This document shows positions 1,939 through 63,469 of a DNA stretch of 64,000 nt, piece after piece. Both the position numbers and the translations under genes were made by a program. Numbering within the stretch: position 1 is the stretch's first letter; every line of letters starts with the position of its first letter. The notes beneath the pieces were generated by a model, which saw only the letters and a program-made list of their open reading frames with translations, did no database searches and was not told the DNA's origin. Origin of the DNA: Longimicrobiales bacterium (GTDB taxonomy: Bacteria; Gemmatimonadota; Gemmatimonadetes; Longimicrobiales; Gaopeijiaceae); contig OZ250165.1 of assembly GCA_965238005.1 (NCBI GenBank), positions 3,008,001 to 3,072,000 of the forward strand, in the 5' to 3' direction.

Positions 1939-2415
1939 ATGACCGAAGGCACCCTCAAGACCGCAGATGCGAAGCGGGAGTACGGGCAGCTGCTGCACCT
2001 TCACGCCCGGCTGCTCGGTAAGCTTCAGTCGATCCGTGATGATCTCGCCGCGCCGGGAACGGGTGCGATAATCCGATTCATTCGGCGCCGGACCGGCTCA
2101 TCCCCGAACGAGGGTCTCACCGAAATCGCCGCGGCCGTGGAGGAAGCGATTCGGGCGCTCAAGTTGAGCGAGTCGAAGGTTCGCGAAGAGATCATGGCGG
2201 ACCACGAGCATGCCGAAGTGGAAGGGATCTCGAACCTGCCCGCGCCCCTAGCCCGATTCCTTGCTGAGCGTCAGGAGTTCCCAGGCTTCTCGTACGATGT
2301 AATCCAGGACGTGAATCGCGGGTGGATCATCCGCTGGAAGGAGCTCACCGACTCCGGCAGCGTGCGCGGGTCGGGTCAGTTCTACGAGCGGCCGTACGCC
2401 TGGCTGGACGACTAG
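1939..2415 (+). CDS. Hypothetical protein
   Basis: 158-aa ORF with protein-like composition, convergent with the HNH gene. Confidence 0.65.
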   Translation: MTEGTLKTADAKREYGQLLHLHARLLGKLQSIRDDLAAPGTGAIIRFIRRRTGSSPNEGLTEIAAAVEEAIRALKLSESKVREEIMADHEHAEVEGISNLPAPLARFLAERQEFPGFSYDVIQDVNRGWIIRWKELTDSGSVRGSGQFYERPYAWLDD

Positions 2416-2990
2416 GGAACCTGGTCTCGGATCCTCACCCGGCCCGCCCGGAGGGTCGACAGCACGTCCTCACCGTAGAACATGCGGATGTACTTGGCCT
2501 GGGCCTCCGTAACACGACGGACGGTCCACACCAGACGCACGTAGTTCGGTTCTCTCGGCTCCGCCAAGAGCCTCATTCCCGCTTCTCGAGGCCGGCGATT
2601 CCCCTTCCGGTTGTTACACGGCGAGCAGGAGGTGACCACGTTCTGCCACGAGTTGTCCCCGCCCCGGGACATGGGAAGGATGTGGTCCCGAGTCAGGAAC
2701 TGCCGGCCCTTGAGCTGCCCACGGTGACGCCCGCAGTACTGGCACTGGTAGTTGTCACGCGCGAACAGGAATGTGTTGGTCACCTGCCGGCGGAATCGCC
2801 TCGGGACGTGTACGTAGCGGACCAGGCGAATGACGGTCGGGAACGGCAGCTCCCTCCGCGGCGAGCGAAACGAACGCTCGTCATCCGTCTCGAGAATCTC
2901 CGCCTTCCGATCGATGACCAGCCGGATGGCCCGGCGAGCCGGGATAATGGTAAGCGGCTCGTATGACGCGTTTAGGGCCAGACAACCCAT
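2412..2990 (-). CDS. HNH endonuclease (McrA-like)
   Basis: CLALNASYEPL N-terminus; RDNYQCQYCG..TRDHILPMSRGG..NVVTSCSPCNNRKG. Confidence 0.9.
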   Translation of the reverse strand: MGCLALNASYEPLTIIPARRAIRLVIDRKAEILETDDERSFRSPRRELPFPTVIRLVRYVHVPRRFRRQVTNTFLFARDNYQCQYCGRHRGQLKGRQFLTRDHILPMSRGGDNSWQNVVTSCSPCNNRKGNRRPREAGMRLLAEPREPNYVRLVWTVRRVTEAQAKYIRMFYGEDVLSTLRAGRVRIRDQVP

Positions 2991-3176
2991 GGCTCTGGAA
3001 TCCCTCCACCGACGATTCCGACAGGGGCCCTCGGGCCCGAACACTGCACTAGTACCCGCGAAGGCACGCAGAGGCTCCTCAGACGGGCAGATACAACGCA
3101 ACAGATACGCTGAACCGCCGGCGACCGCTAGAGGACTGTTGTCTCACTTCTTCAACGGGCTTCTATAGCCGGGCTT

Positions 3177-18991: not shown

Positions 18992-19104
18992 CGACACGCC
19001 TCCGGATTCGGGTTGAAGAGCCCTCGAGCGGACCAAGGCCCGTTGCGAGCAAGCGAGTAACATGGGCGCCAGGAGCCCTTTCGGCGACCCCGGCGGGTGG
19101 CTAG

Positions 19105-20706
19105 GAGTCTGCGCCGCAGAACCCTGCGGCGGCTATCTTTGGTGGTAGCGAAGGCATTGGGAAGGCTTGCGGATCACCGAGGGGGGTGAATGGGAACGAC
19201 ATTTCGACCGTACGATCCGGAGCAGATGTTGTTGCTGCCTCCGGATCTTCGGGAGTGGGTGTCGGAGGGTCATTTGGCGCACCATGTGAGCGACCTGGTG
19301 GACGCGGTGGAGCTGAGCGCGTTCTACGGGCGGTACCGGGGGGACGGGCGGCGCAACTCGCCGTACGACCCTCGGATGATGGTCAAGGTGCTGATCTACG
19401 CGTATGCGACGGGCACCTTCTCGTCGCGGAAGATGGCGAGGAAGCTGGAGGAGGATGTCGCGTTTCGGATGCTGGCGGCGGAGAACTTCCCGAAGCACCG
19501 GACGCTGTGCGAGTTCCGCAAGCGCCATCTCGGGGATTTCCGGGCGGTGTTTGTGGAGGTGGTGATGCTCGCGCGGGCCTTGGGGCTGGCGGGGCTTGGC
19601 AGGGTGTCGGTGGACGGGACGAAGGTTCGGGCGAACGCGAACAAGCGCAAGGCGATGAGCTACGGCCGGATGGTGACCGGGGAGCCTCGGCTGGAGGCGG
19701 AGATCCGGGGGCTGTTGGAGAGGGCCGAGGCGGTGGACGAAGCGGAAGACGAGCGCTACGGCGAGGAAGCATGCGGAGACGAGGTGCCGGAGGAGCTCAA
19801 GCGGCGCGAGGACCGGCTGGCGGCGATCCGGGAGGCGAAGGCGCGCCTGGAAGCCGAGCAGAGAGCGGCGGACGACGCACGGGGCCGCAAGCCGGGGCAG
19901 ACGCGCAACCCGAAGGGCGGCAGGCCCTACAAGCGGGAGTACGGAGAGCCGGACGAGGCGGCGCAGAGCAACTTCACGGACCCTGAGAGCCGGATCATGA
20001 AGACGAGTTCGGAGGGGTTCCAGCAGTGCTACAACGCACAGACGGTCGTGGAGGGGGAGAACCAGCTGGTGGTCGGGGCCGAGGTGACGGACAACGCGAG
20101 CGACCAGGGCCAGCTGGTGCCCATGGTCGACGCGGTGGCGCAAGCGTACGGCGAGACGCCGGCGCAGGTGCTGGCGGACACGGGCTATTGCAACGAGCGG
20201 GATCTCGAGGAACTGGAAGAGCGAGACATCGACGGGTATGTGGCGCTGGCCCGGGAGGGCAAGGCCGCCCCCACGGTTGACAAGGAGGAATATCCGGCGA
20301 AAGTCCGCATGGCGGAGAAGCTGGCGAGCGAAGATGGCCGCAGACGCTACGCACGGCGAAAGTCGCAGGCCGAGGCGCCCATCGGCTGGATCAAGGAAGT
20401 GATGGGCTTTCGACGATTCAGCTTCCGGGGCCTCGAGAAGGTCCGGGCCGAGTGGACCCTCGTGTGCCTGGCACTCAATGTGAAGCGGCTGCACACCCTT
20501 CAGGCGGCATGACTGCACGAGGGTTCACCCGCATCTGCCGGCGCGAGGGCTCTCGTAGCTCTCTTGCCCCCCCCAACGCATCCATTCCGCTCTCCCGATC
20601 CGTCGCAGACACAAGTCCTCAACCTCCCAATCACCCGGATCCGCCTCGCCGCGGACGGCTCGATGACCATTCGGCTCAGTCAGCTGTGCTTCTGCGGCGC
20701 AGACTC
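19105..20706 (+). mobile_element. IS1182-family insertion sequence, copy 1 (1602 bp)
   Basis: Terminal inverted repeats GAGTCTGCGCCGCAGAA / TTCTGCGGCGCAGACTC flanked by CTAG on both sides; three copies in the window. Confidence 0.92.
19190..20512 (+). CDS. IS1182-family DDE transposase
   Basis: YDPRMMVKVLIYAYATGTFSSR, VDGTKVRANA, TDPESRIMK, YNAQ, ADTGY, FRRFSFRGLEKV. Confidence 0.93.
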   Translation: MGTTFRPYDPEQMLLLPPDLREWVSEGHLAHHVSDLVDAVELSAFYGRYRGDGRRNSPYDPRMMVKVLIYAYATGTFSSRKMARKLEEDVAFRMLAAENFPKHRTLCEFRKRHLGDFRAVFVEVVMLARALGLAGLGRVSVDGTKVRANANKRKAMSYGRMVTGEPRLEAEIRGLLERAEAVDEAEDERYGEEACGDEVPEELKRREDRLAAIREAKARLEAEQRAADDARGRKPGQTRNPKGGRPYKREYGEPDEAAQSNFTDPESRIMKTSSEGFQQCYNAQTVVEGENQLVVGAEVTDNASDQGQLVPMVDAVAQAYGETPAQVLADTGYCNERDLEELEERDIDGYVALAREGKAAPTVDKEEYPAKVRMAEKLASEDGRRRYARRKSQAEAPIGWIKEVMGFRRFSFRGLEKVRAEWTLVCLALNVKRLHTLQAA

Positions 20707-22029
20707 CTAGGACCCGGCGAGCCGTCCCCGCACCCATTCGGGCACCGATTCGGCGGCCACCCGTACCTGCTCCAGCGTGTCCCGGTCACGGATCGTGACC
20801 GTTCCGTCCTCCAGCGTCTGCCCGTCCACCGTCACACACCACGGAGTCCCCGCTTCGTCCTGTCGCCTGTAGCGTCGTCCGATTGATCCGGCAGCGTCGT
20901 AGAACGACGGAATGGCCGCACGGCGAAGATCGGCGTGGATCTTCTCGGCGACCTCGGGTAGCCCGTCCTTCTTCACCAGCGGAAAAACGGCTGTCTTGAT
21001 GGGGGCCAGGCCGGGATCGAGGCTCAGCAGCACTCGCTCCTCACCTTCGACTTCTTCCTCTTTGTAAGCGTCCACCAGGGCGACGAGGACCGTTCGGTCC
21101 ACGCCCACGGCCGTCTCCACCACGTAGGGCACGAACCGCTTGTCGCCTGCCGGATCGATGTACTCCAGCCTCTTTCCGGAGTACTCCTGATGCCGCGAGA
21201 GATCGAAGTCGGTCCGGTTGTGGATGCCCTCGAACTCCTTCCATCCGAAGGGAAACTCGTACTCGATGTCGAAGGCCTTCTTGGCGTAGTGGGCCAGCTC
21301 GTCGGGCCCGTGCTCGGTGAAGCGGAGCTTCTCCTTGCGGATCCCTAGCGAAACGTGCCATTCCATGCGCGCGTTCATCCAGTAGTCGAACCACTCGTCG
21401 TCGGTACCGGGCTCTACGAAGAACTGAAGCTCCATCTGCTCAAACTCGCGGGTCCGGAAGATGAAGTTTCCGGGCGTGATCTCGTTTCGGAACGCCTTCC
21501 CGATCTGGGCGATCCCGAAGGGGATCTTCTGGCGGGCCGCAGTCTGGACGTTCAGGAAGTTGACGTACGACCCCTGAGCCGTCTCCGGGCGGAGATAGAC
21601 GACCGCGGCATCGTCCTCGACCGGCCCCATGAAGGTCTTGAACATGAGGTTGAAGAGTCGCGTCTCGCCGAACGCTTCCTTCGTACCGCACGTGGGGCAC
21701 TGTCCGTTCTCGATCTCGGGGAGATCCGCCCGGAAGCGCCGGTGGCAGTTGGAGCACTCCACGAGCGGGTCCGTGAACCCCTCCACATGGCCGGAAGCCT
21801 CCCAGACCTTGGGGTGCATGAGGATGGAGGCATCCAGCCCCTCGACGTCGTTCCGCTGGTGAACCATGGTGCTCCACCAGCGGTCCTGCACGTTGCGCTT
21901 GAGCTCGATCCCGAGGGGACCGTAGTCCCAAACGGAGCCGGTCCCTCCGTAGATCTCGGAGGACTGGAAGATGAATCCCCGGCGCTTCGTCAGGGATGTG
22001 AGCTTGTCCATCGATGGAGAGTCGGCCAT
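20707..22029 (-). CDS. glyQS: Glycine--tRNA ligase (homodimeric type)
   Basis: KRRGFIFQSSEIYGG..DYGPLG, YLRPETAQG, FRNEITPGNFIFRTREFEQME, SIGRRYRRQDEAG. Confidence 0.96.
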   Translation of the reverse strand: MADSPSMDKLTSLTKRRGFIFQSSEIYGGTGSVWDYGPLGIELKRNVQDRWWSTMVHQRNDVEGLDASILMHPKVWEASGHVEGFTDPLVECSNCHRRFRADLPEIENGQCPTCGTKEAFGETRLFNLMFKTFMGPVEDDAAVVYLRPETAQGSYVNFLNVQTAARQKIPFGIAQIGKAFRNEITPGNFIFRTREFEQMELQFFVEPGTDDEWFDYWMNARMEWHVSLGIRKEKLRFTEHGPDELAHYAKKAFDIEYEFPFGWKEFEGIHNRTDFDLSRHQEYSGKRLEYIDPAGDKRFVPYVVETAVGVDRTVLVALVDAYKEEEVEGEERVLLSLDPGLAPIKTAVFPLVKKDGLPEVAEKIHADLRRAAIPSFYDAAGSIGRRYRRQDEAGTPWCVTVDGQTLEDGTVTIRDRDTLEQVRVAAESVPEWVRGRLAGS

Positions 22030-28467: not shown

Positions 28468-29772
28468 ATGAAAATGCAAAGTGGTGTAATGCTGACCGCG
28501 GCCATGGCGGGCCTGGTGCTCCTCCCGGGGAGCTCCGCCCTGGCGGCCCAGGAGAACGCCGAGAAGCGCGGAAGCGACAACATCGAGGTGGTGGCCCACC
28601 TCCCGCTGGGCGGGAGTGGGTGCGACATCGAGATCGAGCAGGAGATGTCCCGTCCCTATGCATATTTGTGCCGCTCCGGGGACAACGCAGGCATGGACAT
28701 CATCGACCTCACCGATCCCCATAACGCCAGGGTGCTCCACCGATGGCGCGTCGAGGATCTGGACCTGCACATCGGGTCCGGCGGCAAGGACCTCAAGATC
28801 TTCAAGTGGGACGGCCGCGACTACGTGGTCCTGGCCATCCAGTTCCGACAGGGCGGACCGGACAACGATCTCGGTGCCATCATCTTCGACGTCTCGGATC
28901 TCCCCGGTGAGATCCGGGAAGTGGCTCGGATCCAGGGGCTCCAGGAGGTCGGCGGCTTCCACAACATCTTCACCTACAAGCACAGCAACGGCCGTGCTCT
29001 TCTCTTCGCCACGACGAGCACTCCGTTCGCACACGTGTACGATCTGGGTTACGTGGTGGAAGGACGACTGGATGAGGCTCTCGTCGCGCGGGTCCCGAAC
29101 CCCTTTCCCGAGGGCCGTAGCTATCACGACTTCTACACGGGCTACCACGCCGACAGCGAGCAGGACCGCTTCTACGGCGGCGGTACGGGCGGCTACTTCG
29201 TCTACAACGTGACGGACCTGGAGAACCCCGAGCTCCTGGTGAGCCTCACGGGCATCCAGGGTGTGGAGTGGGGACATACCTTCACGCCCTCGCCCGACGG
29301 CCGCTACGTCGTGGCCGAGGCCGAGTACCAGTACGCGCCGCTCCGGATCTTCGACCTGCAGCCGGGCCTCGACGGTGAGGTCGCGAACGTCAACCGGCCC
29401 ATCTCCGCGTGGACGGCCAACTGGGAGAACCTGGTCCACAACCATGAGGTCCGCTGGCCCTACGTGTTCGTGTCGGGCTATGTGGACGGCCTACAGATCT
29501 TCACGCTCTCGGATCCCGAGCACCCGAAGACGGTGGGCCACTACGACACCTATCTGGAGCCCGACGACGGCCGTGTGATGGCGGGCGCCTGGGGTGTGGA
29601 CGTGCGCAACGCCGACGGCCTGATCGTGCTGTCCGACATGCAGACCGGATTCTGGGCCTTCCGCATGGAGGGATTCAGCGGCTGGAACGGACTGGACTGG
29701 GGTGTTCCGAACATCTCGAGCGCCCAGGATTGGGAGAATGGGCCGGCGTATCAGGCTCAGAGTCGGAACTAG
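28468..29772 (+). CDS. LVIVD-repeat / choice-of-anchor B-like secreted beta-propeller protein
   Basis: Signal peptide; RGSDNIEVVAHLPLG, GMDIIDLTDP, GFHNIF, VHNHEVRWPYVFVSGYVDGLQIF, GAWGVDV. Confidence 0.78.
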   Translation: MKMQSGVMLTAAMAGLVLLPGSSALAAQENAEKRGSDNIEVVAHLPLGGSGCDIEIEQEMSRPYAYLCRSGDNAGMDIIDLTDPHNARVLHRWRVEDLDLHIGSGGKDLKIFKWDGRDYVVLAIQFRQGGPDNDLGAIIFDVSDLPGEIREVARIQGLQEVGGFHNIFTYKHSNGRALLFATTSTPFAHVYDLGYVVEGRLDEALVARVPNPFPEGRSYHDFYTGYHADSEQDRFYGGGTGGYFVYNVTDLENPELLVSLTGIQGVEWGHTFTPSPDGRYVVAEAEYQYAPLRIFDLQPGLDGEVANVNRPISAWTANWENLVHNHEVRWPYVFVSGYVDGLQIFTLSDPEHPKTVGHYDTYLEPDDGRVMAGAWGVDVRNADGLIVLSDMQTGFWAFRMEGFSGWNGLDWGVPNISSAQDWENGPAYQAQSRN

Positions 29773-29876
29773 GAGGATCGCGCGACGCGCCGCGGCAGAG
29801 ACCGGAGGGAAAAGCCGCCGGACGACCGGGAGTTCGCTTGCAGACTGGTCGCTTGCAGGGTGATGAAGAAGGGAAG

Positions 29877-30102
29877 TGAGCATGTCATCGGTGACGTGGC
29901 GTTCGAGCAGACCGTGGCGGTGAAAGTAACGGAGCACTCGGTGTCGAACGGTCTGCTGTAGCTGGTCCCAGTCGGAGGCCGTGAGATGGGTGGCCTCGTA
30001 GAACTCGACCGAGCCCTCGGGATCCCCGCTGAACACACCGTCGATGACGCAGACGTGGAAGTGGAAGTGGAAGTGGGCGTTCAGGGCCGAGCCAAAGCGA
30101 TG
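29877..30102 (-). mobile_element. Internal fragment of an IS91-family (Y2/HUH) transposase
   Basis: HRFGSALNAHFHFHFHVCVIDGVF..HRVLRYFHRHGLL; HUH region carries a 6-bp slippage duplication. Confidence 0.75.
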
Positions 30103-30430
30103 GGGGTTAGAATGTCGAAGTACCGAATCCGGTTGGTGCTGAGGACCGATCGCTACACGACGTGGTGGATCCAGCACCGCTTTCGCCGGACGCGCAAGGA
30201 GATCGCGGCCGCCCGCCGAGAGAAAGCGGATGCCTGAGACTGTCAGATTATAAACGTCGTAGTCTGTGTCTGAGTTGACACTATCTTGGCAAGGTATCGA
30301 AGACGTTGAACTGAAGTTCAGCATCAATACGGAACCACAAGGCGAAGAGATGCGTTCGGCATGTGCGACGTTCATTCCTTGACGGTCGGGGTCCGTGCAC
30401 GTATCCTGCCTTCGAAAGGAGGTGGAGACG

Positions 30431-31007: not shown

Positions 31008-32657
31008 GTGACCATCACGGTTGCAGCAGCCACAGCCAGGCGGCTGGCGGATGCCGGCATCGAGCGCGTATTCGGGCTGCCCGGAGGCGAGATCGTCGTG
31101 TTGATGGACGAGCTTCGCCGGGTGGGCGTCGACTTCGTTCTCATGAGGCACGAGGCCAACGCCGGCATCGCAGCGGCCGTATACGGCAAGCTGCAGCGAC
31201 AGCCCGGGGTGGTTCTGACCACGCTCGGACCCGGCGCAGCGAACCTGATGTTGCCCTTGTCGAGCTCTTATCTCGATCAAGAGCCCCTCCTCGCGATCTC
31301 TGCCCAGATTCCCGACGACTTTCCGTCGGACTACACCCATCAGCTGTTGCCGCTGCACGACGTCTACGGGCCGATCACCAAGTATGTGGCCAAGGTCACG
31401 GCCGACAACGTCGGCGACGTGGTCCCCCGCGCCCTGGCTGCCTGCATGGATCGACCATTCGGGGCGGCTTACCTAACCCTGTCCGCCAGGGAGGCGATCG
31501 CGCCGGTCGACGGGGTGGCGGGGTTACAGGCTGAGGCCGGACCTCGGGCCGAGGCCGGGGGCGACGATGGTCCCCCGGGCATCGGACAAGGACCGGCCGG
31601 TAAGCAGCGAGTTGCCGAACACATGGCCAGGGAGCTCACGGATGCGCTGAGGAGCGCCGAGAGGCCGCTCGTGATCGTGGGGTTGGGGACGGACACGGCG
31701 AACAGCTCCGCGCTGCGCCGATGGCTGGACGAGTGGAATCTTCCGTTGGCGGTTACCCCGAAGGTCAAAGGCATCGTCGACGAGACCGCCGACAACTTCC
31801 TCGGAACGGTCGGTGGGATGGCGGCCGACGGACTGATATGTGAGGCGCTGGAGGCATCCGATCTGCTGATCGGGTTCGGCTTCGACCCGGTGGAATCCGA
31901 CGGAACTTGGTTTGCCGAGCTGCCGATCCGTTGGGTGCTGGAAGCCCCCAACGTGGGTGGGCTCGTTCCGGAGGGCGCCGAGCTGGTGGATCACCGTGCG
32001 CTTCTGGACGTTCTCCTGGGCGAAGAGGCCCCGTCGCAGTGGGTGGCCCCGTTCAAGGAGTTCCAGGAAAGGCGGCTGGCGCTGCTCGATGATCATCCCG
32101 AGGTGTCCGACACGATGTGGCAGGGTGATCTCATCAGGGGGCTGGCTTCCGCAGTACCCTCAGAGACCATCGTCGTCACCGATGTCGGGGCCCACAAGTT
32201 CCTCTTCGGACAGTTTTGGCCGAGCCGACACCCCCAGACCTTCTGGATGTCGAACGGCCTCTCGGGCATGGCGTACGGGTTGGGTGCCGCTATCGGGGCC
32301 AAGCTCGCCCGACCCGACGCTCCGGTCCTGGCGGCCGTGGGTGACGGTGGCTTCTCCATGAACTGTCAGGAACTCGAGACGGCCGTCCGTGTGGGTGCGC
32401 CCTTCGTGACGGTGGTCCTCGAAGACGCCAGCTACGGGCTCATCAAGATGGCGCAGGACCGTCGCAAGCTCGACCTGTACAGAACCGAGTTCCGGCCCAT
32501 CGACTCTGTGAAGATCGCCGAGGCGTGCGGCGTGGCCGGGCTACGGACCACGGATCCCGACCGGATGTCCGCCGCCGTGGTGGAAGCGCTCTCCCGTAAC
32601 GAAAGTCTCGTGGTAGAGGTGCCGGTGGACTACACGCACTATCGAAGGCTTTTCTAG
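31008..32657 (+). CDS. Thiamine-diphosphate-dependent enzyme (acetolactate synthase large subunit-like)
   Basis: VFGLPGGE, RHEANA, TLGPGAAN, TDVGAH, SNGLSGMAYG, GDGGFSMN; GTG start after GGAGG. Confidence 0.9.
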   Translation: MTITVAAATARRLADAGIERVFGLPGGEIVVLMDELRRVGVDFVLMRHEANAGIAAAVYGKLQRQPGVVLTTLGPGAANLMLPLSSSYLDQEPLLAISAQIPDDFPSDYTHQLLPLHDVYGPITKYVAKVTADNVGDVVPRALAACMDRPFGAAYLTLSAREAIAPVDGVAGLQAEAGPRAEAGGDDGPPGIGQGPAGKQRVAEHMARELTDALRSAERPLVIVGLGTDTANSSALRRWLDEWNLPLAVTPKVKGIVDETADNFLGTVGGMAADGLICEALEASDLLIGFGFDPVESDGTWFAELPIRWVLEAPNVGGLVPEGAELVDHRALLDVLLGEEAPSQWVAPFKEFQERRLALLDDHPEVSDTMWQGDLIRGLASAVPSETIVVTDVGAHKFLFGQFWPSRHPQTFWMSNGLSGMAYGLGAAIGAKLARPDAPVLAAVGDGGFSMNCQELETAVRVGAPFVTVVLEDASYGLIKMAQDRRKLDLYRTEFRPIDSVKIAEACGVAGLRTTDPDRMSAAVVEALSRNESLVVEVPVDYTHYRRLF

Positions 32658-33016
32658 GCGACTCTCTGCACGATGAAGTCGGGAACGGTTCTGTGGAAGC
32701 GAACATCGTCGTAGTAGCCGAGGCGAACCAGGTTGTAGAAACGATCGGCGCCGATGGGCGCCCAGCCCCGGACTACTTCGATCACGAGGTCGCCGGCGCT
32801 CGTCTCGAAGCGGGCCAGGAGCGTATCGGGGGCGGCTTCGCTCCAAACCGGAAGATCGGGATCGAGTAGTACGTCCCGTCGAGAGGCTTCGGCAATGGCA
32901 CCAGAGGCGCCGCGCGGCATCGGGGGCTCTTCCTGGTCGGCGCTTCCACCGCAGCTGGACGCACACACCAGGGTCGCCGCCACGAAGGCGAAGTAAGGAG
33001 CACCTTTGGTCAGCAT
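32654..33016 (-). pseudogene. C-terminally truncated cyclophilin-type PPIase lipoprotein
   Basis: FETSAGDLVIEV..WAPIGADRFYNLVRLGYYDDVRFHRTVPDFIVQ then stop within 3 codons; catalytic C-half missing. Confidence 0.8.
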
Positions 33017-33228
33017 TGCTTTACGCCCGAATCGACGGTGGGTTTGGGTCATTCTGCCGAGCCACGGCGACCTGTCCAGGTATCGCGCACTCGAATCGAC
33101 GTGTTCAGGAGGGCGTTCGACAGCACGGGTCGGGGTGTGCCGGTCGGTCGGCCGATCGTGTTGCATTCGGCTGCTATGAGGGTTAAGAGATGGAGCGCCC
33201 AATACAGTGAGGAGCGCCCGATACGTCT

Positions 33229-36874: not shown

Positions 36875-37234
36875 ACATGGCTGGCCGTGCATGAGGACGG
36901 GACGGCGACCTTCTACGTCGGGAAGACCGACGGGGGCCAGGGCACCGGAACCGCCTTCCGCCGGCTGATGTGCGACGAGTTGGACATCGCCTTCGAGAAG
37001 AGCACGCTGGTCATGGGCCGAACCGACCTGACGGTCGATCAGGGTGGGTCGGATGCGATCGAACGCGACGCCTGGGCCGCTCGCCGGGTGGCCGCAGAAG
37101 CCCGCCGCGTCCTGCTGGAGATGGCGTCCGAGCGGTTCGGCGTACTGGTGGACGGGCTTGCCGTCAGCGAAGGAGTGATCTCCATACGGCGCGATCCCTC
37201 CAGGCAGGTCACGTACGAGGCTGCCGGTGTCTAG
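36875..37234 (+). pseudogene. Fragment of a xanthine dehydrogenase-family molybdopterin-binding subunit
   Basis: WLAVHEDGTATFYVGKTDGGQGTGTA..DELD..AAEARRVLLEMASERFGV. Confidence 0.75.
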
Positions 37235-38521: not shown

Positions 38522-39359
38522 GGCCAGGCCTCAGGGGAGCGTCCAGCGTTTGGGAGTATTGAACCGATCAGACCATACCTGCCCGCGTCCGCCAGGACAA
38601 CTCGGGAGGAAGGCGAAAGTCGCAGATCTTACTGGCGTCGTGGAGCGGACCGGCCGACGCCCGACGTAGCGATGGCGAACGGGAGACGATCAAGGTTGTG
38701 TGCCGGGAGTTGGGCCTCAGCGAGAGGCTCACTTGGACTAGCTCGGAGAGGAGAAGTCCTACGGCAGACCCGAGCTGTTGGAGCTCTGCGACGATATCTG
38801 GGACTAGGACCCTCAGGTGACACGGATCTCCATATCTGTGATGTTCCAAACCTCAGCCTAGTCGGAAGGTCTGAATTGCCAGCAGGTCTACTCGGCCGCG
38901 GCCAAGTTGTTCTCGGCCAGCCCGCAGCATTATGGACTCCGCTTGTTGCAGGGTCCACAGCGCTCACCTTGCAGCTCGCGCTGTGGATCACCATCGTCCT
39001 CGCGCAGCAGAGCCGAGGCGCCGGTAGGGTCTCGAAGAAGCGGAGTTCCTTCAACTCCTCCTCGATGTCAGAAACGATATCGACACTCAGTTCCAGCTTT
39101 GGCTAACGATCACGTAGGGGCAGCTTCTGTAAAATGATAACCGTCGTCCTGGCTTCTCTCACTCTCTCATCGCTGTTCGTCCAGGATCAGCAGGCCCCTG
39201 ATGGTACGGTCCGGATCGGATCGTCTTCGGACGCCACCTCCGGCGGCCAGTTCGTCCACGAAGACTTCGATCCGGACTTCGGGGTCAACTCCGGGTTACG
39301 GTCGAGCGAGCCTCCTCCCCCACCGCCACCCTGGGGGACGACCTCGCTCCCGACTACGT

Positions 39360-39467
39360 GACGAGCGGATGCGTGGATGGGCAAGGGATGCCGAACGGAT
39401 CCGACCCCGCGTCGGGGACGGCAGGTCCGTGGTGCGTCGGTCTATGTCTCAGTCTGGCCGCGACTGA
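39360..39467 (-). mobile_element. Fragment of the IS91-like element 3' end (transposase stop plus downstream DNA)
   Basis: Aligns by eye to 42241-42374 (CGGATGCGTGGATGGGCAA..GTCGGGGACGGC..TCTCAGTCTGG). Confidence 0.7.
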
Positions 39468-39529
39468 CGAGGACCGAATGCCCGAGCTAAGCTAACAAAC
39501 CCCAGGATTGCTAATTGACACAAGAATCC

Positions 39530-39631
39530 GGACAGGCCCTGTCTTTCGACCAGCATGACTTGTTCTTCTCCGTCCACTTCCTGCGAGCGCACCTCGACGA
39601 TTTCATTGGCGCGGGCCTGCACGGTGCGACC
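39530..39631 (-). pseudogene. Short fragment resembling the PyrR C-terminus
   Basis: Translates GRTVQARANEIVEVRSQEVDGEEQVMLVER, similar to the PyrR C-terminal V-x-V-x-L-x-E-x-DG pattern. Confidence 0.45.
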
Positions 39632-39645
39632 GCTCCTATTAATTC

Positions 39646-39728
39646 GGACCCGGAGGCATATTGGTTCGACATCATCGTCGGGAATCCTCCGTGGCTCGTA
39701 TATCGGAAGGACCCGGAGGCATATTGGT
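39646..39728 (+). repeat. Perfect 20-bp direct repeat pair enclosing a 43-bp insert
   Basis: GGACCCGGAGGCATATTGGT at 39646-39665 and 39709-39728. Confidence 0.95.
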
Positions 39729-41912
39729 CATAAGAAAGTTGGTGCGAAGATCGTAGAGATGATATTGTGTGTTTTTACCTTCCCGTAATCCGTGGTTCCG
39801 GTTTGGATATGACATCATGGTAAATCGTTTTTTATGTGACACCAGCTCATTGATCAAAGCCTCAAAACTTTGATAATGTACATTTGAATCACCCGTCCCA
39901 TGGATGATGAGCAATTTGCCTTTAAGCTGGTGTGCCCAGGTGATGGGAGAACCGTTTATGTACCCATCCTCATTATCTTCAAGCAGCCCCATGTACCTTT
40001 CCTGGTATCCAGGGTGATAATACCTCTGGTTGCTTACGAAAGATGACGGCATGGCGAGACTATACAGATCCGGATACCTGAAAATCAGGTTAAGGCTCAT
40101 CTGGCCTCCGCCACTATGCCCGTATATCCCGATCCTTTCAGGATCGATGTAAGGCCTTGTTTCAAGGATTTTCCTGGTAGCTGCTGCCTGGTCGTGAGCG
40201 GCCAATATACCCAACTGACCATCAATGGCTTTTCGCCATGCCCTGCCGCGGGGAGCCGGAGTGCCACGATTGTCCACGCTCATGATCACATACCCTTGCT
40301 GTGCAAGCATTTGGTGCCACAAATACTGTGTCTCGCTGCGCCACCTGTCGAGCACGGTCTGTCCGGCGGGCTCGCCGTAGATGTAGTAAAGGAGCGGGTA
40401 TTTCTTACTTGGATCCATATCGGGAGGTTTTATGTAATACCCATCAATTTCAACGCCTCCGCCGATGTCAACCCTGAAAAATTCCGTGGGGTTCTTTCTG
40501 ACAATGTTCAGTTTTTCTTTCAGCTCTTTATTATCCTCCAGCACCTTAACGGTGGAGTGATCGGCTAAACGAATGAAGTCATAAACGGGAGGGGTGTCAA
40601 AAGTAGAATAGTTGTGGACCGCCCATTTCATATCGGGTGAAATCTGATACGAATGTGTTCCGTTTAGCGAGGCAGGCGTAATTCTTTCCTGCCTACCACC
40701 CGGGCTGAGAGATGTCCTGTAAAGGTATCGCTGACCGGGATTATCTGGCGACGCCATATAATACAACCACCCGTTTTCGTCATCAATTCCGCTAATGCTA
40801 ATGACGTCGAATTCGCCGGGAGTCAGTTGGCCAATTTCCTCACCTGCGCGAGTATAGACATAAGCGTGCTTCCATCCGTCCCGTTCACTAAGCCAGATGA
40901 ATCTGCTTTTGTCCTCATTCCATGTAAAGCTATTTTCTAGCCACGCATCGTCTGATTCGGTGAGGATGGTTTTGAGATTACCTGTTGAAGTCTCAGCCAG
41001 TACGACCCTGACCTTGTCACGAGTTCTGTTGGAAATCTGAAGAAGAAGTTCTTCGCTGTTGCCTGCCCAATCGGAAACCCGTAAGTAATCGTCACTACTA
41101 AGCCCGGGTATGTCCAGCCAGCTGATCTCTCCGCTTGACAACTCTACAATACCGACTCGGGAAGAAGCCCTTTTTTGCCCTACCTTGACATAAGGGAATT
41201 CGATGATCTTTGGGTACAGTGTCTCAGTATTGTTGATCATATAATAAGTCAGAACATCAGATATGTCCGTTTCGACAAAGGCGATGTAGCGGCCATCCGG
41301 GCTCCAGTAGTAGTTGCTGCCCCTCCCCCAGTCCCCGGCATAACGTTTTTTACTTCCCGTATCGGTCAGTTGATAAATTTTGAAACTCGTAAGGTCCTGA
41401 ACATATATATTATGATCCATCATGTAACACACCATCTTGCCATCAGGGGAGAATTTGACTCCTCTGAGTGACTGTGACGGCACATCTCCTCCTATTTTTA
41501 TCCAGGTCCACAACCCGATGTCCATGACCCAATAATCGGCTTTGTTTCCGCCCCAAACCTCCCGGGTCGAATTGATAGAGGTAAGTAACCTGTTGCGGTT
41601 TTCAGAAAAGCTATAGGAGGTAAGAGGCGTTGACGTGCCCGGAATGATCAGCCTTTGAGCGGGCACCAATACCTTTTTGATCCCTGTTTCCGGATCGTAT
41701 TGCACGATGTCCCGTCCATCTTCCATGGATGCCTCGAGCACCGTGTAACTTCCGTCATCACGCCATCTGACAGGCCCAAAGGACTTAGACGAGAATTCGT
41801 TGCTGAAGATCCTGTCAAGGGTTAGAAGAGAGGGATCGTCACTCTGGCCATAGCAAGGCACGCCAAATATGAAGAAGATAAAGACAAGCGGATTCTTTAA
41901 ATAATATCTCAT
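39672..41912 (-). CDS. S9B dipeptidyl-peptidase IV family protein (AT-rich, probably foreign)
   Basis: LTLDRIF, WSPDG propeller repeats, YGEPAGQ, DNRGT, GHSGGG nucleophile, IHGTGDSNVH, YPNRNH. Confidence 0.92.
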   Translation of the reverse strand: MRYYLKNPLVFIFFIFGVPCYGQSDDPSLLTLDRIFSNEFSSKSFGPVRWRDDGSYTVLEASMEDGRDIVQYDPETGIKKVLVPAQRLIIPGTSTPLTSYSFSENRNRLLTSINSTREVWGGNKADYWVMDIGLWTWIKIGGDVPSQSLRGVKFSPDGKMVCYMMDHNIYVQDLTSFKIYQLTDTGSKKRYAGDWGRGSNYYWSPDGRYIAFVETDISDVLTYYMINNTETLYPKIIEFPYVKVGQKRASSRVGIVELSSGEISWLDIPGLSSDDYLRVSDWAGNSEELLLQISNRTRDKVRVVLAETSTGNLKTILTESDDAWLENSFTWNEDKSRFIWLSERDGWKHAYVYTRAGEEIGQLTPGEFDVISISGIDDENGWLYYMASPDNPGQRYLYRTSLSPGGRQERITPASLNGTHSYQISPDMKWAVHNYSTFDTPPVYDFIRLADHSTVKVLEDNKELKEKLNIVRKNPTEFFRVDIGGGVEIDGYYIKPPDMDPSKKYPLLYYIYGEPAGQTVLDRWRSETQYLWHQMLAQQGYVIMSVDNRGTPAPRGRAWRKAIDGQLGILAAHDQAAATRKILETRPYIDPERIGIYGHSGGGQMSLNLIFRYPDLYSLAMPSSFVSNQRYYHPGYQERYMGLLEDNEDGYINGSPITWAHQLKGKLLIIHGTGDSNVHYQSFEALINELVSHKKRFTMMSYPNRNHGLREGKNTQYHLYDLRTNFLMTNMPPGPSDIRATEDSRR

Positions 41913-42129
41913 GGCATTGGGGCCTAAGGGATGTGGCGACATGCGGAAACCTCCGGTTGCTGGAGTAATCACGCCTGAATTGTTGAAAGCCTCATCTACC
42001 CGACGTTTCCCATTTGGAATTGCCTGGAACCACTCCAGGCTCGGAATGGTGCCTATTGTAATGACATGCGCCCCCCCGTGTCTAGCGCGTCGGAATTTTC
42101 CCCATTTTTTTGACTGCCAGCCCCAATAG

Positions 42130-42720
42130 GGATAGGCATTTTAAAGACCCTGTCCGAGTCCGGCACCCCGTTTGAGCGAGCCGAGTCCTTACCGTTGTGA
42201 GGCTGAGGTGCGCGTTCCCCGTCCAGCCATGCACGGACGAGACGATCGGATGCGTGGATGGGCAACAGGAACCGAACGGCCCTGACCCCGAGTAGATACC
42301 GCACGGCCCCGACCCCGAGTCGGGGACGGCGGGTCCGTGCTCCGTCGAGCAGCTCTCAGTCTGGCTGCGACTGATCGAATTCAAATTCCGGAATGGGTTC
42401 CGGATCGGCGAGGTCGAACCCGCCGGTCTGATCGAACTCGAACAGGTCCGACCACGCTTTGCGCGGTGCCCGCGGCGCCCGAGCCGGAGACAGTGGAGGG
42501 CCGGCACACCGGGCTCGTGCGAGTCCATGAGCGAGAATGCCACAGCGCAGGTAGGCCCGGAAGTCGCGTTCGACCCACGAAGGGACGCCGCCCCCTAGGG
42601 GGTCCGCCTCGGCGACCTCTGTGAGGAAGGTCTCGAGGTGGTGCTGGACCAGTGGATAGAGCGGCGTCAGGGTGGGACGGCGCCGGCGGTAGACGGGCCC
42701 ACAGTTTGGTGCGGTGGGCC
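42130..42720 (-). mobile_element. Internally deleted IS91/ISCR-like element
   Basis: VYRRRRPTLTPLYPLVQHHLETFL..VERDFRAYLRCGILAHGLARARC (Zn-binding N-domain) fused to PPLSPARAP..FDQSQPD C-terminus; ends ..AAAATGCCTATCC (ori-like). Confidence 0.75.
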
Positions 42721-43072
42721 GAGGGGGCGACCCTGATCGAGAGCTGACCCGTGTACGCCGCGACGTGGCGTGCATCCCGGACGGTGAGTAGAGTCCGGTG
42801 GCGGGAACATGGCTCGGCAGGCCTAGCTATCGTACGTATACCCACGATATAAAGATACGTACACGTCTCCGAAGAGCATTTCGGCGAGCTTCCTATCGAG
42901 CGATCGGCTGCTAGCGCGATGAGCACCGAGGTCGCGCGCTTCGCCTGCGATCACCCGATTGGGCCGCGCAGCAGTCGTCTAGAGAGCACCCCTCTTCGTG
43001 GCTGCCCGCTAGCCCGCCACAGCGTTGGGTCCGGATCGCATTGGAGTTTGGCGTTCGGCGCGAGGACCCCGT

Positions 43073-56286: not shown

Positions 56287-56805
56287 TTTCAAACGCCCCT
56301 GGGTTCGGGTTGCTGGGAGGTCAGCCCGTTCCTTGGCAGAGGTGAACTGACGGCCAATATTGAGTGGATTCGTTCCGCCCGAACCGCCGAATGCTGGTGG
56401 GAACCGGGCATGTCGGCGAGCACGGGGCGGTGCGGAAGGTCTGGAGAGGGGGGTTGGTAAAAATGGGCTGGGATGACGTTGAACGAAAAGCTGTGACGGC
56501 TGAGGAGACTCGATGACGGAAGCCGAGTTCGGGACGCCGAAAAGAGCGCCTGCCCAGTTTGCATGGTCGAGAAGATGTTGAAATGACTACCGCGCGTAAG
56601 CTTTTCGGCCTTCTTTCTCCCAGCAAACGTCGCGCATCTACCGCGCTCCTGGGTCTCATGCTGATCGGGATGGTGATGGAAACCCTAGGAATCAGCTTGG
56701 TATTCCCCGCGCTGACGTTGATGACCGAGACCGATCTGGCGGCTCGTTACCCCGCCCTGGCACCCTGGCTGGATAGACTCAGCAATCCCAGCCAGGAGGA
56801 GCTAG

Positions 56806-58406
56806 GAGTCTGCGCCGCAGAACCCTGCGGCGGCTATCTTTGGTGGTAGCGAAGGCATTGGGAAGGCTTGCGGATCACCGAGGGGGGTGAATGGGAACGA
56901 CATTTCGACCGTACGATCCGGAGCAGATGTTGTTGCTGCCTCCGGATCTTCGGGAGTGGGTGTCGGAGGGTCATTTGGCGCACCATGTGAGCGACCTGGT
57001 GGACGCGGTGGAGCTGAGCGCGTTCTACGGGCGGTACCGGGGGGACGGGCGGCGCAACTCGCCGTACGACCCTCGGATGATGGTCAAGGTGCTGATCTAC
57101 GCGTATGCGACGGGCACCTTCTCGTCGCGGAAGATGGCGAGGAAGCTGGAGGAGGATGTCGCGTTTCGGATGCTGGCGGCGGAGAACTTCCCGAAGCACC
57201 GGACGCTGTGCGAGTTCCGCAAGCGCCATCTCGGGGATTTCCGGGCGGTGTTTGTGGAGGTGGTGATGCTCGCGCGGGCCTTGGGGCTGGCGGGGCTTGG
57301 CAGGGTGTCGGTGGACGGGACGAAGGTTCGGGCGAACGCGAACAAGCGCAAGGCGATGAGCTACGGCCGGATGGTGACCGGGGAGCCTCGGCTGGAGGCG
57401 GAGATCCGGGGGCTGTTGGAGAGGGCCGAGGCGGTGGACGAAGCGGAAGACGAGCGCTACGGCGAGGAAGCATGCGGAGACGAGGTGCCGGAGGAGCTCA
57501 AGCGGCGCGAGGACCGGCTGGCGGCGATCCGGGAGGCGAAGGCGCGCCTGGAAGCCGAGCAGAGAGCGGCGGACGACGCACGGGGCCGCAAGCCGGGGCA
57601 GACGCGCAACCCGAAGGGCGGCAGGCCCTACAAGCGGGAGTACGGAGAGCCGGACGAGGCGGCGCAGAGCAACTTCACGGACCCTGAGAGCCGGATCATG
57701 AAGACGAGTTCGGAGGGGTTCCAGCAGTGCTACAACGCACAGACGGTCGTGGAGGGGGAGAACCAGCTGGTGGTCGGGGCCGAGGTGACGGACAACGCGA
57801 GCGACCAGGGCCAGCTGGTGCCCATGGTCGACGCGGTGGCGCAAGCGTACGGCGAGACGCCGGCGCAGGTGCTGGCGGACACGGGCTATTGCAACGAGCG
57901 GGATCTCGAGGAACTGGAAGAGCGAGACATCGACGGGTATGTGGCGCTGGCCCGGGAGGGCAAGGCCGCCCCCACGGTTGACAAGGAGGAATATCCGGCG
58001 AAAGTCCGCATGGCGGAGAAGCTGGCGAGCGAAGATGGCCGCAGACGCTACGCACGGCGAAAGTCGCAGGCCGAGGCGCCCATCGGCTGGATCAAGGAAG
58101 TGATGGGCTTTCGACGATTCAGCTTCCGGGGCCTCGAGAAGGTCCGGGCCGAGTGGACCCTCGTGTGCCTGGCACTCAATGTGAAGCGGCTGCACACCCT
58201 TCAGGCGGCATGACTGCACGAGGGTTCACCCGCATCTGCCGGCGCGAGGGCTCTCGTAGCTCTCTTGCCCCCCCAACGCATCCATTCCGCTCTCCCGATC
58301 CGTCGCAGACACAAGTCCTCAACCTCCCAATCACCCGGATCCGCCTCGCCGCGGACGGCTCGATGACCATTCGGCTCAGTCAGCTGTGCTTCTGCGGCGC
58401 AGACTC
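56806..58406 (+). mobile_element. IS1182-family insertion sequence, copy 2 (1601 bp)
   Basis: Same terminal inverted repeats; CTAG at 56802-56805 and 58407-58410. Confidence 0.92.
56891..58213 (+). CDS. IS1182-family DDE transposase
   Basis: Translation identical to 19190-20512. Confidence 0.93.
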   Translation: MGTTFRPYDPEQMLLLPPDLREWVSEGHLAHHVSDLVDAVELSAFYGRYRGDGRRNSPYDPRMMVKVLIYAYATGTFSSRKMARKLEEDVAFRMLAAENFPKHRTLCEFRKRHLGDFRAVFVEVVMLARALGLAGLGRVSVDGTKVRANANKRKAMSYGRMVTGEPRLEAEIRGLLERAEAVDEAEDERYGEEACGDEVPEELKRREDRLAAIREAKARLEAEQRAADDARGRKPGQTRNPKGGRPYKREYGEPDEAAQSNFTDPESRIMKTSSEGFQQCYNAQTVVEGENQLVVGAEVTDNASDQGQLVPMVDAVAQAYGETPAQVLADTGYCNERDLEELEERDIDGYVALAREGKAAPTVDKEEYPAKVRMAEKLASEDGRRRYARRKSQAEAPIGWIKEVMGFRRFSFRGLEKVRAEWTLVCLALNVKRLHTLQAA

Positions 58407-59995
58407 CTAGCCATCTTCGGGATGTTGATGCTGGTTTCAGTGTTTGCCGTCAAGACGCTGTCCCTTGCGATTCTCGCCTGGCGGCAAGCAGCCTTCGTGT
58501 GGGGGCTTCAATCTGATCTTTCCCATCGGCTGTTCGCCGGCTATTTACACCGGCCCTACACGTTTCATATGCAGCGCAATTCAGCGCAGCTGATCCGCAA
58601 CACCATGGGTCAGGTTTCCGAATTCGCAACTGTGCTGCAACAGAGTTTAGTCCTGATGACGGAAGTGTTGGTGGTCCTCGGAATTTCAGCGCTGCTGATC
58701 TCGGTCGAACCTCGTGGTGCATTGGCGGTGATGGGCACTCTCGGGTTCTTCAGTTGGGCATCTTATTATTTGACTCGCCGGCGCCTCCTCCGATGGGGTG
58801 AAGCACACCAGCATCACGAAGGTCTGCGCATACAGCACCTCCAACAGGGCCTGAGCGGCATCAAGGAAGTGAAGCTGTATGCGCGGGAAGACCGTTTTCT
58901 TAGCCAATACCAAGTTCATAATGCCGGTAGCGCGAGGGCCGGGCAGGGGCGGGCGACCCTTCTGGCGTTTCCGCGTCTCTTCTTGGAGTTTATCGCAGTC
59001 GTCGGCCTGGCCGGCCTGGTCCTGGTGATGATCGGACAGGGAAAGTCCCCGGCGGAAGTGGTACCTGCCCTTGCGTTGTTCGCAGCTGCGGCGTTTCGCC
59101 TCATGCCATCCGGGAGCCGCATGATATCTGCGATTCAGAGCATGCGGTTCTTCAGACCTGCGGTTGAGACCCTGTACAGCGAGTTCAGGTTGCTGGATGG
59201 AGCACCAGCCCCAAACAACGGCCATCCCCTACCGTTCAATAGTGCGCTGGAGCTCGACAGGGTCAGCTATAGGTACCCATTGGCAGAAGCTCCCGTCCTG
59301 CGCGACGTGAGTTTTTCCATTGCGCAGGGCACGTCGGTGGGGTTCGTCGGAGAAAGTGGCGCGGGAAAGAGCACTCTGGTGAACCTCATCCTCGGCCTCC
59401 TTTCTCCTGACGTAGGTTCCGTGAGAGCGGACGACGTCGACGTCCAGTCCAATTTGCGGGGATGGCAGCGTCAGATCGGCTACGTTCCGCAGTCCATCTT
59501 CCTGACCGATGATACCCTGCGTCGCAACGTCGCCTTTGGATTGGCCAGTGAAGAAATCGATGAAGTCGCGGTGTGGCAGGCCGTCCGAGCCGCTCAACTG
59601 GAGCGGTTTGTCCTCGACCTACCGTTGGGGCTGGACACCGTGGTCGGCGAGCGAGGCGTTCGGTTATCAGGGGGCCAGCAGCAGCGTATTGGCATTGCTC
59701 GTGCACTCTATCACCAACCGCGCGTGCTGGTTCTGGATGAAGCTACCAGTTCACTGGACACTACCACAGAGCGGGCTGTTATGGCAACCGTGCGGGCCCT
59801 GAAGGGAGAGAAGACGCTCATTATCGTTGCCCATCGCTTCTCGACGGTCGAGCACTGTGACCGGTTGTATCGCTTTGAACAGGGGAGGTTAGTTGAGGAG
59901 GGGCAGGCGGCGATGGTGCTGAGGGGTGCAGCCCAAGGCGGAGGCGAAGAGTGAGGAACGGCATTTTGGCCTCCTCTGAGAATTTACAAGCACGA

Positions 59996-61679: not shown

Positions 61680-61721
61680 GTCAGCCCCGCCCGTCGTCCG
61701 CTCCGGCGGACTGGCGGCTAG

Positions 61722-63322
61722 GAGTCTGCGCCGCAGAACCCTGCGGCGGCTATCTTTGGTGGTAGCGAAGGCATTGGGAAGGCTTGCGGATCACCGAGGG
61801 GGGTGAATGGGAACGACATTTCGACCGTACGATCCGGAGCAGATGTTGTTGCTGCCTCCGGATCTTCGGGAGTGGGTGTCGGAGGGTCATTTGGCGCACC
61901 ATGTGAGCGACCTGGTGGACGCGGTGGAGCTGAGCGCGTTCTACGGGCGGTACCGGGGGGACGGGCGGCGCAACTCGCCGTACGACCCTCGGATGATGGT
62001 CAAGGTGCTGATCTACGCGTATGCGACGGGCACCTTCTCGTCGCGGAAGATGGCGAGGAAGCTGGAGGAGGATGTCGCGTTTCGGATGCTGGCGGCGGAG
62101 AACTTCCCGAAGCACCGGACGCTGTGCGAGTTCCGCAAGCGCCATCTCGGGGATTTCCGGGCGGTGTTTGTGGAGGTGGTGATGCTCGCGCGGGCCTTGG
62201 GGCTGGCGGGGCTTGGCAGGGTGTCGGTGGACGGGACGAAGGTTCGGGCGAACGCGAACAAGCGCAAGGCGATGAGCTACGGCCGGATGGTGACCGGGGA
62301 GCCTCGGCTGGAGGCGGAGATCCGGGGGCTGTTGGAGAGGGCCGAGGCGGTGGACGAAGCGGAAGACGAGCGCTACGGCGAGGAAGCATGCGGAGACGAG
62401 GTGCCGGAGGAGCTCAAGCGGCGCGAGGACCGGCTGGCGGCGATCCGGGAGGCGAAGGCGCGCCTGGAAGCCGAGCAGAGAGCGGCGGACGACGCACGGG
62501 GCCGCAAGCCGGGGCAGACGCGCAACCCGAAGGGCGGCAGGCCCTACAAGCGGGAGTACGGAGAGCCGGACGAGGCGGCGCAGAGCAACTTCACGGACCC
62601 TGAGAGCCGGATCATGAAGACGAGTTCGGAGGGGTTCCAGCAGTGCTACAACGCACAGACGGTCGTGGAGGGGGAGAACCAGCTGGTGGTCGGGGCCGAG
62701 GTGACGGACAACGCGAGCGACCAGGGCCAGCTGGTGCCCATGGTCGACGCGGTGGCGCAAGCGTACGGCGAGACGCCGGCGCAGGTGCTGGCGGACACGG
62801 GCTATTGCAACGAGCGGGATCTCGAGGAACTGGAAGAGCGAGACATCGACGGGTATGTGGCGCTGGCCCGGGAGGGCAAGGCCGCCCCCACGGTTGACAA
62901 GGAGGAATATCCGGCGAAAGTCCGCATGGCGGAGAAGCTGGCGAGCGAAGATGGCCGCAGACGCTACGCACGGCGAAAGTCGCAGGCCGAGGCGCCCATC
63001 GGCTGGATCAAGGAAGTGATGGGCTTTCGACGATTCAGCTTCCGGGGCCTCGAGAAGGTCCGGGCCGAGTGGACCCTCGTGTGCCTGGCACTCAATGTGA
63101 AGCGGCTGCACACCCTTCAGGCGGCATGACTGCACGAGGGTTCACCCGCATCTGCCGGCGCGAGGGCTCTCGTAGCTCTCTTGCCCCCCCAACGCATCCA
63201 TTCCGCTCTCCCGATCCGTCGCAGACACAAGTCCTCAACCTCCCAATCACCCGGATCCGCCTCGCCGCGGACGGCTCGATGACCATTCGGCTCAGTCAGC
63301 TGTGCTTCTGCGGCGCAGACTC
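61722..63322 (+). mobile_element. IS1182-family insertion sequence, copy 3 (1601 bp)
   Basis: Same terminal inverted repeats; CTAG at 61718-61721 and 63323-63326. Confidence 0.92.
61807..63129 (+). CDS. IS1182-family DDE transposase
   Basis: Translation identical to the other two copies. Confidence 0.93.
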   Translation: MGTTFRPYDPEQMLLLPPDLREWVSEGHLAHHVSDLVDAVELSAFYGRYRGDGRRNSPYDPRMMVKVLIYAYATGTFSSRKMARKLEEDVAFRMLAAENFPKHRTLCEFRKRHLGDFRAVFVEVVMLARALGLAGLGRVSVDGTKVRANANKRKAMSYGRMVTGEPRLEAEIRGLLERAEAVDEAEDERYGEEACGDEVPEELKRREDRLAAIREAKARLEAEQRAADDARGRKPGQTRNPKGGRPYKREYGEPDEAAQSNFTDPESRIMKTSSEGFQQCYNAQTVVEGENQLVVGAEVTDNASDQGQLVPMVDAVAQAYGETPAQVLADTGYCNERDLEELEERDIDGYVALAREGKAAPTVDKEEYPAKVRMAEKLASEDGRRRYARRKSQAEAPIGWIKEVMGFRRFSFRGLEKVRAEWTLVCLALNVKRLHTLQAA

Positions 63323-63469
63323 CTAGCTTGTCGTCGGAATTCTTGCTCACGGCGCTCGAGCACCAGCGGCGGCCAACGCTCCGCAGACACGCGGTGTCAT
63401 GAGGTTCACACGGACTGCATCACAAACGGCGTCATGGCATCGCTCAAGGGGACCGTTCCGAGTCGCGGG

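Follow-up and report, generated by a model that had tools for sequence, protein, structure and literature searches.

The 3' end of an S9/DPP-IV peptidase gene carries two copies of a 20-bp sequence, hereafter X, on either side of 43 bp of foreign DNA. Read from its sequence, the event is a 63-bp insertion composed of a second copy of X and the 43 foreign bases, and our data support the view that the latter are a true fragment of a gene for a type IIG restriction-methyltransferase (family PDLC03630). Most likely, the resulting X-43-X structure is a neutral scar left by a single DNA repair or replication event, and not a working element. With moderate confidence, we read it as a template-switch or repair scar left by the joining in of foreign DNA.

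X (GGACCCGGAGGCATATTGGT on the + strand) is a perfect direct repeat with a start-to-start spacing of 63, both copies being intact and 43 bp apart, as a preliminary description of this DNA had stated. The repeat is exactly 20 bp long, and the sequences flanking X are unrelated. When up to three mismatches were allowed, X had two matches only in the window (the whole 64-kb stretch of DNA analyzed) and the 43-mer matched once, while none of 100 dinucleotide shuffles contained any match to X. Further, X was the sole close (≤200 bp), non-overlapping exact repeat of at least 16 bp in the 64 kb, and the longest comparable repeat across 100 simulated windows measured 15 bp. The coordinates of the features discussed below are collected in Table 1.

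Table 1. Features of the X-43-X structure, the peptidase gene and the surrounding low-GC islet (positions are those of the window).
Feature	Position	Strand	Description
Left imperfect direct repeat	39356..39467		82–93% identical to the right copy; end of an ORF (last codons, stop) plus ~95 bp of downstream sequence that contains a hairpin-like GC stem
Low-GC islet	39636..42100		47–51% GC (peptidase gene 47–49% GC, GC3 0.54); left edge sharp, right edge approximate
Displaced native peptidase end	39636..39645	-	G-AAT-TAA-TAG (N, stop, stop) after left X; AT-rich; final 10 nt of the islet, adjoining GC-rich host DNA
Left copy of X	39646..39665		Encodes T-N-M-P-P-G-(P) on the - strand
Insert, 43 bp	39666..39708	+ (sense)	Encodes (F)DIIVGNPPWLVYR(K), motif IV of the type IIG restriction-methyltransferase family
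S9/DPP-IV peptidase ORF	39672..41972	-	DPPIV_N 2.9e-66, Peptidase_S9 2.6e-41 (Pfam)
Right copy of X	39709..39728		Contiguous with the peptidase reading frame
Right imperfect direct repeat	42237..42374		Attached to ORF 42356-42775 (-); 27-nt extra stretch

The geometry of the structure would fit a capture made by an enzyme, either a Cas1-Cas2-like integrase acting off target or a casposase, whose staggered attacks 20 bp apart would leave a one-unit 'proto-array'. The 63-bp unit falls in the range of CRISPR unit sizes, and the insert derives from a defence gene typical of mobile DNA. Off-target integration by Cas1-Cas2 has also been reported, through a secondary citation, in E. coli. However, TRF over the window returned no array, there being one insert and two repeat copies only, and no cas1 or cas2 was found among the 93 ORFs scanned in the window nor in the Pfam scans of 67 ORFs, in agreement with the preliminary description, which had noted no cas gene nearby. 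In addition, X falls, at 20 bp, below the length of known CRISPR repeats and exceeds that of casposon duplications, it is a conserved coding sequence with no repeat-like fold, and only one such structure exists in the 64 kb. The X-43-X unit as a whole had no special structure (DNA fold z-score 0.63), and an Rfam scan of the window yielded 0 families. An enzymatic origin is, in our judgement, very unlikely, and we give hardly any credence to the specific claim that X-43-X is a natural fossilised product of a Cas1-Cas2-like integrase acting outside any array, which, if true, would make it a wild example of the first repeat-spacer-repeat unit arising. The earlier proposal of a spacer-like capture with target duplication thus holds in one respect, namely that a short foreign piece was captured and its target duplicated. 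The comparison with a spacer is not supported, as there is one unit with a 20-bp coding repeat and neither an array nor Cas1/Cas2 was found in the window.

The identity of the 43-mer was determined from its coding capacity. The + strand of the insert encodes FDIIVGNPPWLVYR, which lies inside ...DPEAYWFDIIVGNPPWLVYRKDPEAYWS*. The Pfam Eco57I model matched the insert with an E value of 0.0033 and 18 bits, under its 25.3-bit cut-off. A family profile built from 50 full-length type IIG members was then compared with all 1737 segments of the six-frame translation of the window, and it matched WFDIIVGNPPWLVYRK (E 1.3e-5) at HMM positions 569–584 of 1064. The match ended at the insert edges, before X, and the rest of the 1064-position profile found nothing significant elsewhere in the window (the only other match had an E value of 7.8). 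The preliminary description had assigned the insert to motif IV of amino-methyltransferases; the family profile bears this out and sharpens it to type IIG.

Wider searches were in line with this assignment. When a library was searched with one type IIG domain, 2210 relatives were retrieved, and the block FD(I/V)(I/V)VGNPPWL(S/T/V)YR was present in 147 of the best 150. The best family representatives matched 12 of the insert's 14 encoded residues. A pattern scan for GNPPWLVYR over one genome per species gave 11 loci, eight of them being motif IV in methylase genes of ~1000 aa and three being chance occurrences. Five proteins of the ~1000-aa kind all matched the PADLOC model PDLC03630 'type IIG restriction enzyme-methyltransferase' (E 1e-76 to 3e-92), and all members of a second, overlapping set of five carried Pfam N6_Mtase and Eco57I. 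A PDB search returned two adenine methyltransferase sequences (E 0.11), and a tblastn search of plasmids with the 28-aa peptide yielded 184 records, with best E values of 0.1–0.2 and none individually significant.

The donor gene itself was not recovered. The 43-mer was present in none of the 11 GNPPWLVYR loci (one genome per species, the window's own genome not being among them), the best agreement being 32/45 nt. In plasmids and phages, a 76-nt blastn query had motif-level matches only (84–88% over 32 nt, E at least 0.2), and a word-indexed protein search with the 40-residue region returned one candidate, with none scored.

The 43-mer is the sole piece of a type IIG gene in the 64 kb, and no restriction-modification system was found in the window. 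The insert is a fragment only, with no SAM-binding motif, nuclease or target-recognition part. These observations bear on a further possibility raised earlier, that the structure is what remains of a restriction-modification island after integration at a 20-bp attachment core and later deletion of all but 43 bp. The insert does derive from a restriction-modification gene, and direct repeats at a gene 3' end are the usual signature of site-specific integration. Nevertheless, because the 43-mer comes from the middle of a ~1000-aa gene, two deletions would be needed, each stopping exactly at the core edge. Moreover, Pfam scans revealed no integrase in the window, no other piece of such a gene is present there, and the target gene is non-conserved and a recent acquisition in its own right. 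We consider this explanation highly improbable and do not retain it.

We also considered whether X itself could be native to the type IIG methylase and have served as a long homology anchor. The X-encoded DPEAYW resembled the type IIG family with p of about 0.08–0.09 against random 18-mers (418/4452 from the islet; 10358/127964 from the window), which is not significant, and, as noted above, the alignment to the family profile stops short of X; the idea was not upheld for this family. A different plasmid methylase family does have PEAY at exactly that offset (NPPW-x6-PEAY), and across families the outcome for X as methylase sequence is ambiguous.

In the peptidase gene, both copies of X stand in native context. 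The two peptidase domains are complete and uninterrupted (DPPIV_N, 1–354 of 354 profile positions; Peptidase_S9, 8–209 of 213), and, judging from relatives, the native start codon is probably the ATG at 41912 (MRYYLKN...). A sigma-70-like site, TAGACA-18-TACAAT (10/12, a consensus match only), was observed at 42055-42084 (-), ~145 nt upstream of this probable ATG. The present C-terminal end reads ...TNMPPGPSDIRATEDSRR*, its last 11 codons (SDIRATEDSRR) and the TGA stop being antisense of the insert. When the 63 bp were removed in silico, the gene ended ...TNMPPGPN followed by TAA (39639-39641) and then TAG, in accordance with the clean end proposed in the preliminary description. The right copy of X continues the gene, and the left copy leads into the original last codon and stops.

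Alignment of S9 homologues agreed with this reconstruction. The five closest relatives (82–87% identical, one of them a named Bacteroidales MAG protein) end in TNMPPGPK, PPGAK or PPGGR. An (L/M)PPG-type motif was found in 102 of the 119 relatives examined, 28 of these 102 stopping exactly two residues after PPG, and a comparison of C-terminal ends in 55 relatives revealed no SDIRATEDSRR tail. PPGPN* is hence supported as the ancestral peptidase end. Taken together, the PPG-type ends of the relatives and the result of the in silico removal support X as native peptidase coding sequence that was duplicated. The predicted net effect of the scar is a peptidase ten residues longer, the last residue having been lost and an 11-residue tail gained.

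Could the structure be an assembly, polishing or library artefact, in which a chimeric molecule or a local mis-assembly placed a methylase piece of another organism in the gene? We note that 20 nt equals k-1 for de Bruijn graphs with k=21, and the donor gene is absent from the window. On the other hand, the very same peptidase protein, tail included, is present in the database with 100% identity over residues 400–766, in a cluster of four member sequences, possibly non-independent, on two contigs (the longest of 4,839,169 bp). Further, a graph loop of the form X-43-X requires reads joining the 43-mer to X on both sides, and the structure retains an open frame with a stop. An artefact is, in our estimation, quite unlikely.

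The setting of the peptidase gene, which the preliminary description did not include, is that the whole gene is foreign and of low GC content. The DNA surrounding the islet has ~65% GC, and host genes have a GC3 of about 0.8–0.88. At the left edge of the islet, the GC-rich sequence changes to CTATTAATTC at 39636, so that a mere 10 nt separate this edge from the left copy of X; the GC content is 47% vs 63% on the two sides. The named best matches of a glycine-tRNA ligase encoded in the window are from Gemmatimonadota/Longimicrobiales (79–85% identity), whereas the closest relatives of the peptidase are Bacteroidales-like proteins (85–87% identity). The low GC content and the Bacteroidales-like relatives inside a chromosome of ~65% GC suggest that the peptidase gene came by cross-phylum transfer, apparently a recent one, and that the incoming piece was trimmed almost to the stop codon. 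The lie of the islet edge, 10 nt from the insertion, points to an illegitimate-joining or template-switch scar.

The stretches 38530-39640 and 41913-42236, next to the islet, lack a coding frame, GC3 being about 0.6 in each of the six frames, and have an intermediate GC content of 56–58%; they look like non-coding or decayed patchwork. The islet is bracketed by imperfect direct repeats, each of which comprises the last five to six codons and stop of an ORF (...QS(R/Q)PD*), and no further copies of these flank fragments were found in the window. ORF 42356-42775 (-), to which the right repeat is attached, encodes 139 aa with a VERDFRAYLRCGILAHG... block. The Atlas clusters nearest to it pointed to PF14319 Zn_Tnp_IS91 (score 0.84, a lead only), and it may be the remnant of an internally deleted IS91-type transposase or zinc-finger N-terminus. 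This candidate assignment was not upheld, Pfam being silent even at E 10, and the ORF had no sequence similarity to the ORF at 29491-30375 (-). The latter has a weak Y2_Tnp (IS91-family) match of its own (E 1.6e-4, profile positions 7–84 of 183) and is probably a transposase remnant.

Other features of the window were recorded along the way. Three 99.9% identical copies of a ~1.61-kb insertion sequence with a 440-aa DDE_Tnp_1/DUF772 transposase lie at 19096-20710, 56801-58410 and 61713-63326. Partial matches to MoCoBD_2 (36887-37234 (+), positions 54–164 of 283) and to cyclophilin (32654-33202 (-), positions 3–52 of 159) may each represent a gene fragment or a mis-called ORF. A stand-alone HNH endonuclease ORF at 2412-3101 (-) has weak PADLOC domain-level matches (PtuB, Cas9 HNH region), with no partner genes seen.

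The preferred reading, a template-switch or repair scar, can be put as the following series of steps. A Bacteroidales-like peptidase gene would have entered a GC-rich, Gemmatimonadota-like chromosome through illegitimate recombination, with the incoming foreign piece ending 1–7 nt past the peptidase stop codon. During copying or repair of this foreign end, the growing strand would have completed the 20 nt of X and then switched to an unrelated template in the cell, namely the gene or transcript of a type IIG restriction-methyltransferase, from which 43 nt across the catalytic motif would have been copied. The strand would then have returned 20 nt behind its point of departure, copying X again, then the stop codons and then host DNA. 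Serial template switching of this kind would explain why no sequence was lost, why the insert originates mid-gene, why the homology ends exactly at the insert edges and why the scar sits at an illegitimate junction.

It would also explain the details of the reading frame at the two junctions, where one base of X on each side completes a codon of the insert. In the insert frame, the F codon is completed by the last T of X, the K codon by its first G, so that the junction bases would be shared, as expected of microhomology-primed switches. At the left junction, type IIG family members mostly have K or R in front of FD, while other methylases have G there, with GGG-TTC-GA in all three plasmid genes examined; two to three shared nt are plausible there. 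The donor gene was not found in the species genomes, plasmids or phages, and these microhomologies (T or GT/GGT on the left; G or more on the right) are presumed ones. The template switches themselves, and the origin of all junctions in a single event, are likewise presumed.

The main competitor for the same observations is capture by end joining, in which a staggered break with 20-nt overhangs would have been filled in and a free 43-bp methylase fragment ligated between the ends, a Ku/LigD-type or similar pathway being the candidate ligation route. A perfect duplication around a short unrelated piece fits such a course of events, as do the location of the site at an illegitimate junction and the fact that X shows no extended homology to the type IIG family. 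Against this, a staggered break with nicks 20 nt apart is left unexplained, and we know of nothing that would place such nicks at the peptidase 3' end. The requirement of the insert frame for one X base on each side suits primed copying over blunt ligation, and neither Ku nor LigD was seen in Pfam scans of the window, which covers 64 kb of the genome only. End joining is, on these grounds, unlikely.

If the template-switch reading is right, the structure is a nucleotide-resolution fossil of foreign DNA being stitched into a bacterial chromosome through a series of illegitimate junctions, with 43 nt of an unrelated defence gene having been copied at one of them. To our knowledge, natural templated microinsertions in environmental bacteria have rarely been documented. 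There is also a practical lesson, in that such scraps can yield spurious methyltransferase-like ORFs (here, a 72-codon ORF created at 39515-39733 (+)), alter protein tails and mimic repeat-spacer geometry.

The structure can be compared with several known systems. With type IIG restriction enzyme-methyltransferases (PDLC03630; N6_Mtase, Eco57I, MmeI), the insert shares the context of motif IV, (N/D)PP(Y/F/W), but it consists of 43 nt and not of a full-length gene. As in genomic islands located at gene 3' ends, foreign DNA within the final codons is flanked by direct repeats; here, however, the repeats enclose just 43 bp, an integrase is lacking, and the core would be in a non-conserved foreign gene. 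CRISPR repeats are typically about 23–55 bp long and non-coding, in contrast with X, which has 20 bp, encodes the conserved TNMPPGP and does not occur in tandem units. The duplication made by off-target Cas1-Cas2 integration is of repeat length, about 28 bp, whereas 20 bp are duplicated here, as a single unit in a coding target with no cas gene in the window. What the two have in common, as far as the secondary account goes, is a target duplicated around a short foreign insert outside any array (Nivala et al. 2018, E. coli, cited in PMC7054753).

Closer in kind are processes in which short stretches are copied or integrated at small homologies. In MMBIR/FoSTeS and polymerase-theta-type templated insertions, serial low-processivity switches at short junction homologies give rise to insertions copied from elsewhere, and to duplications when the strand re-enters behind its exit point. 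These processes are mostly documented in eukaryotes, whereas the present case is bacterial. In bacteria, SPDIR (Harms et al. 2016, as presented in bioRxiv 10.1101/2023.11.22.568220) integrates ectopic stretches of 3 to ~100 bp at microhomologies; according to the same account, such events are rare and foreign DNA can be the donor. The SPDIR events described in that account substitute sequence, and the word 'duplication' is absent from its text. On this basis, our structure differs from SPDIR in that nothing was replaced or lost, 20 bp were duplicated and the microhomologies are inferred, and it resembles SPDIR in having a short heterologous ectopic stretch inside a native gene, here 43 nt of methylase in the 3' end of a peptidase. 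The scar represents no new system and belongs to a type of mutation already known.
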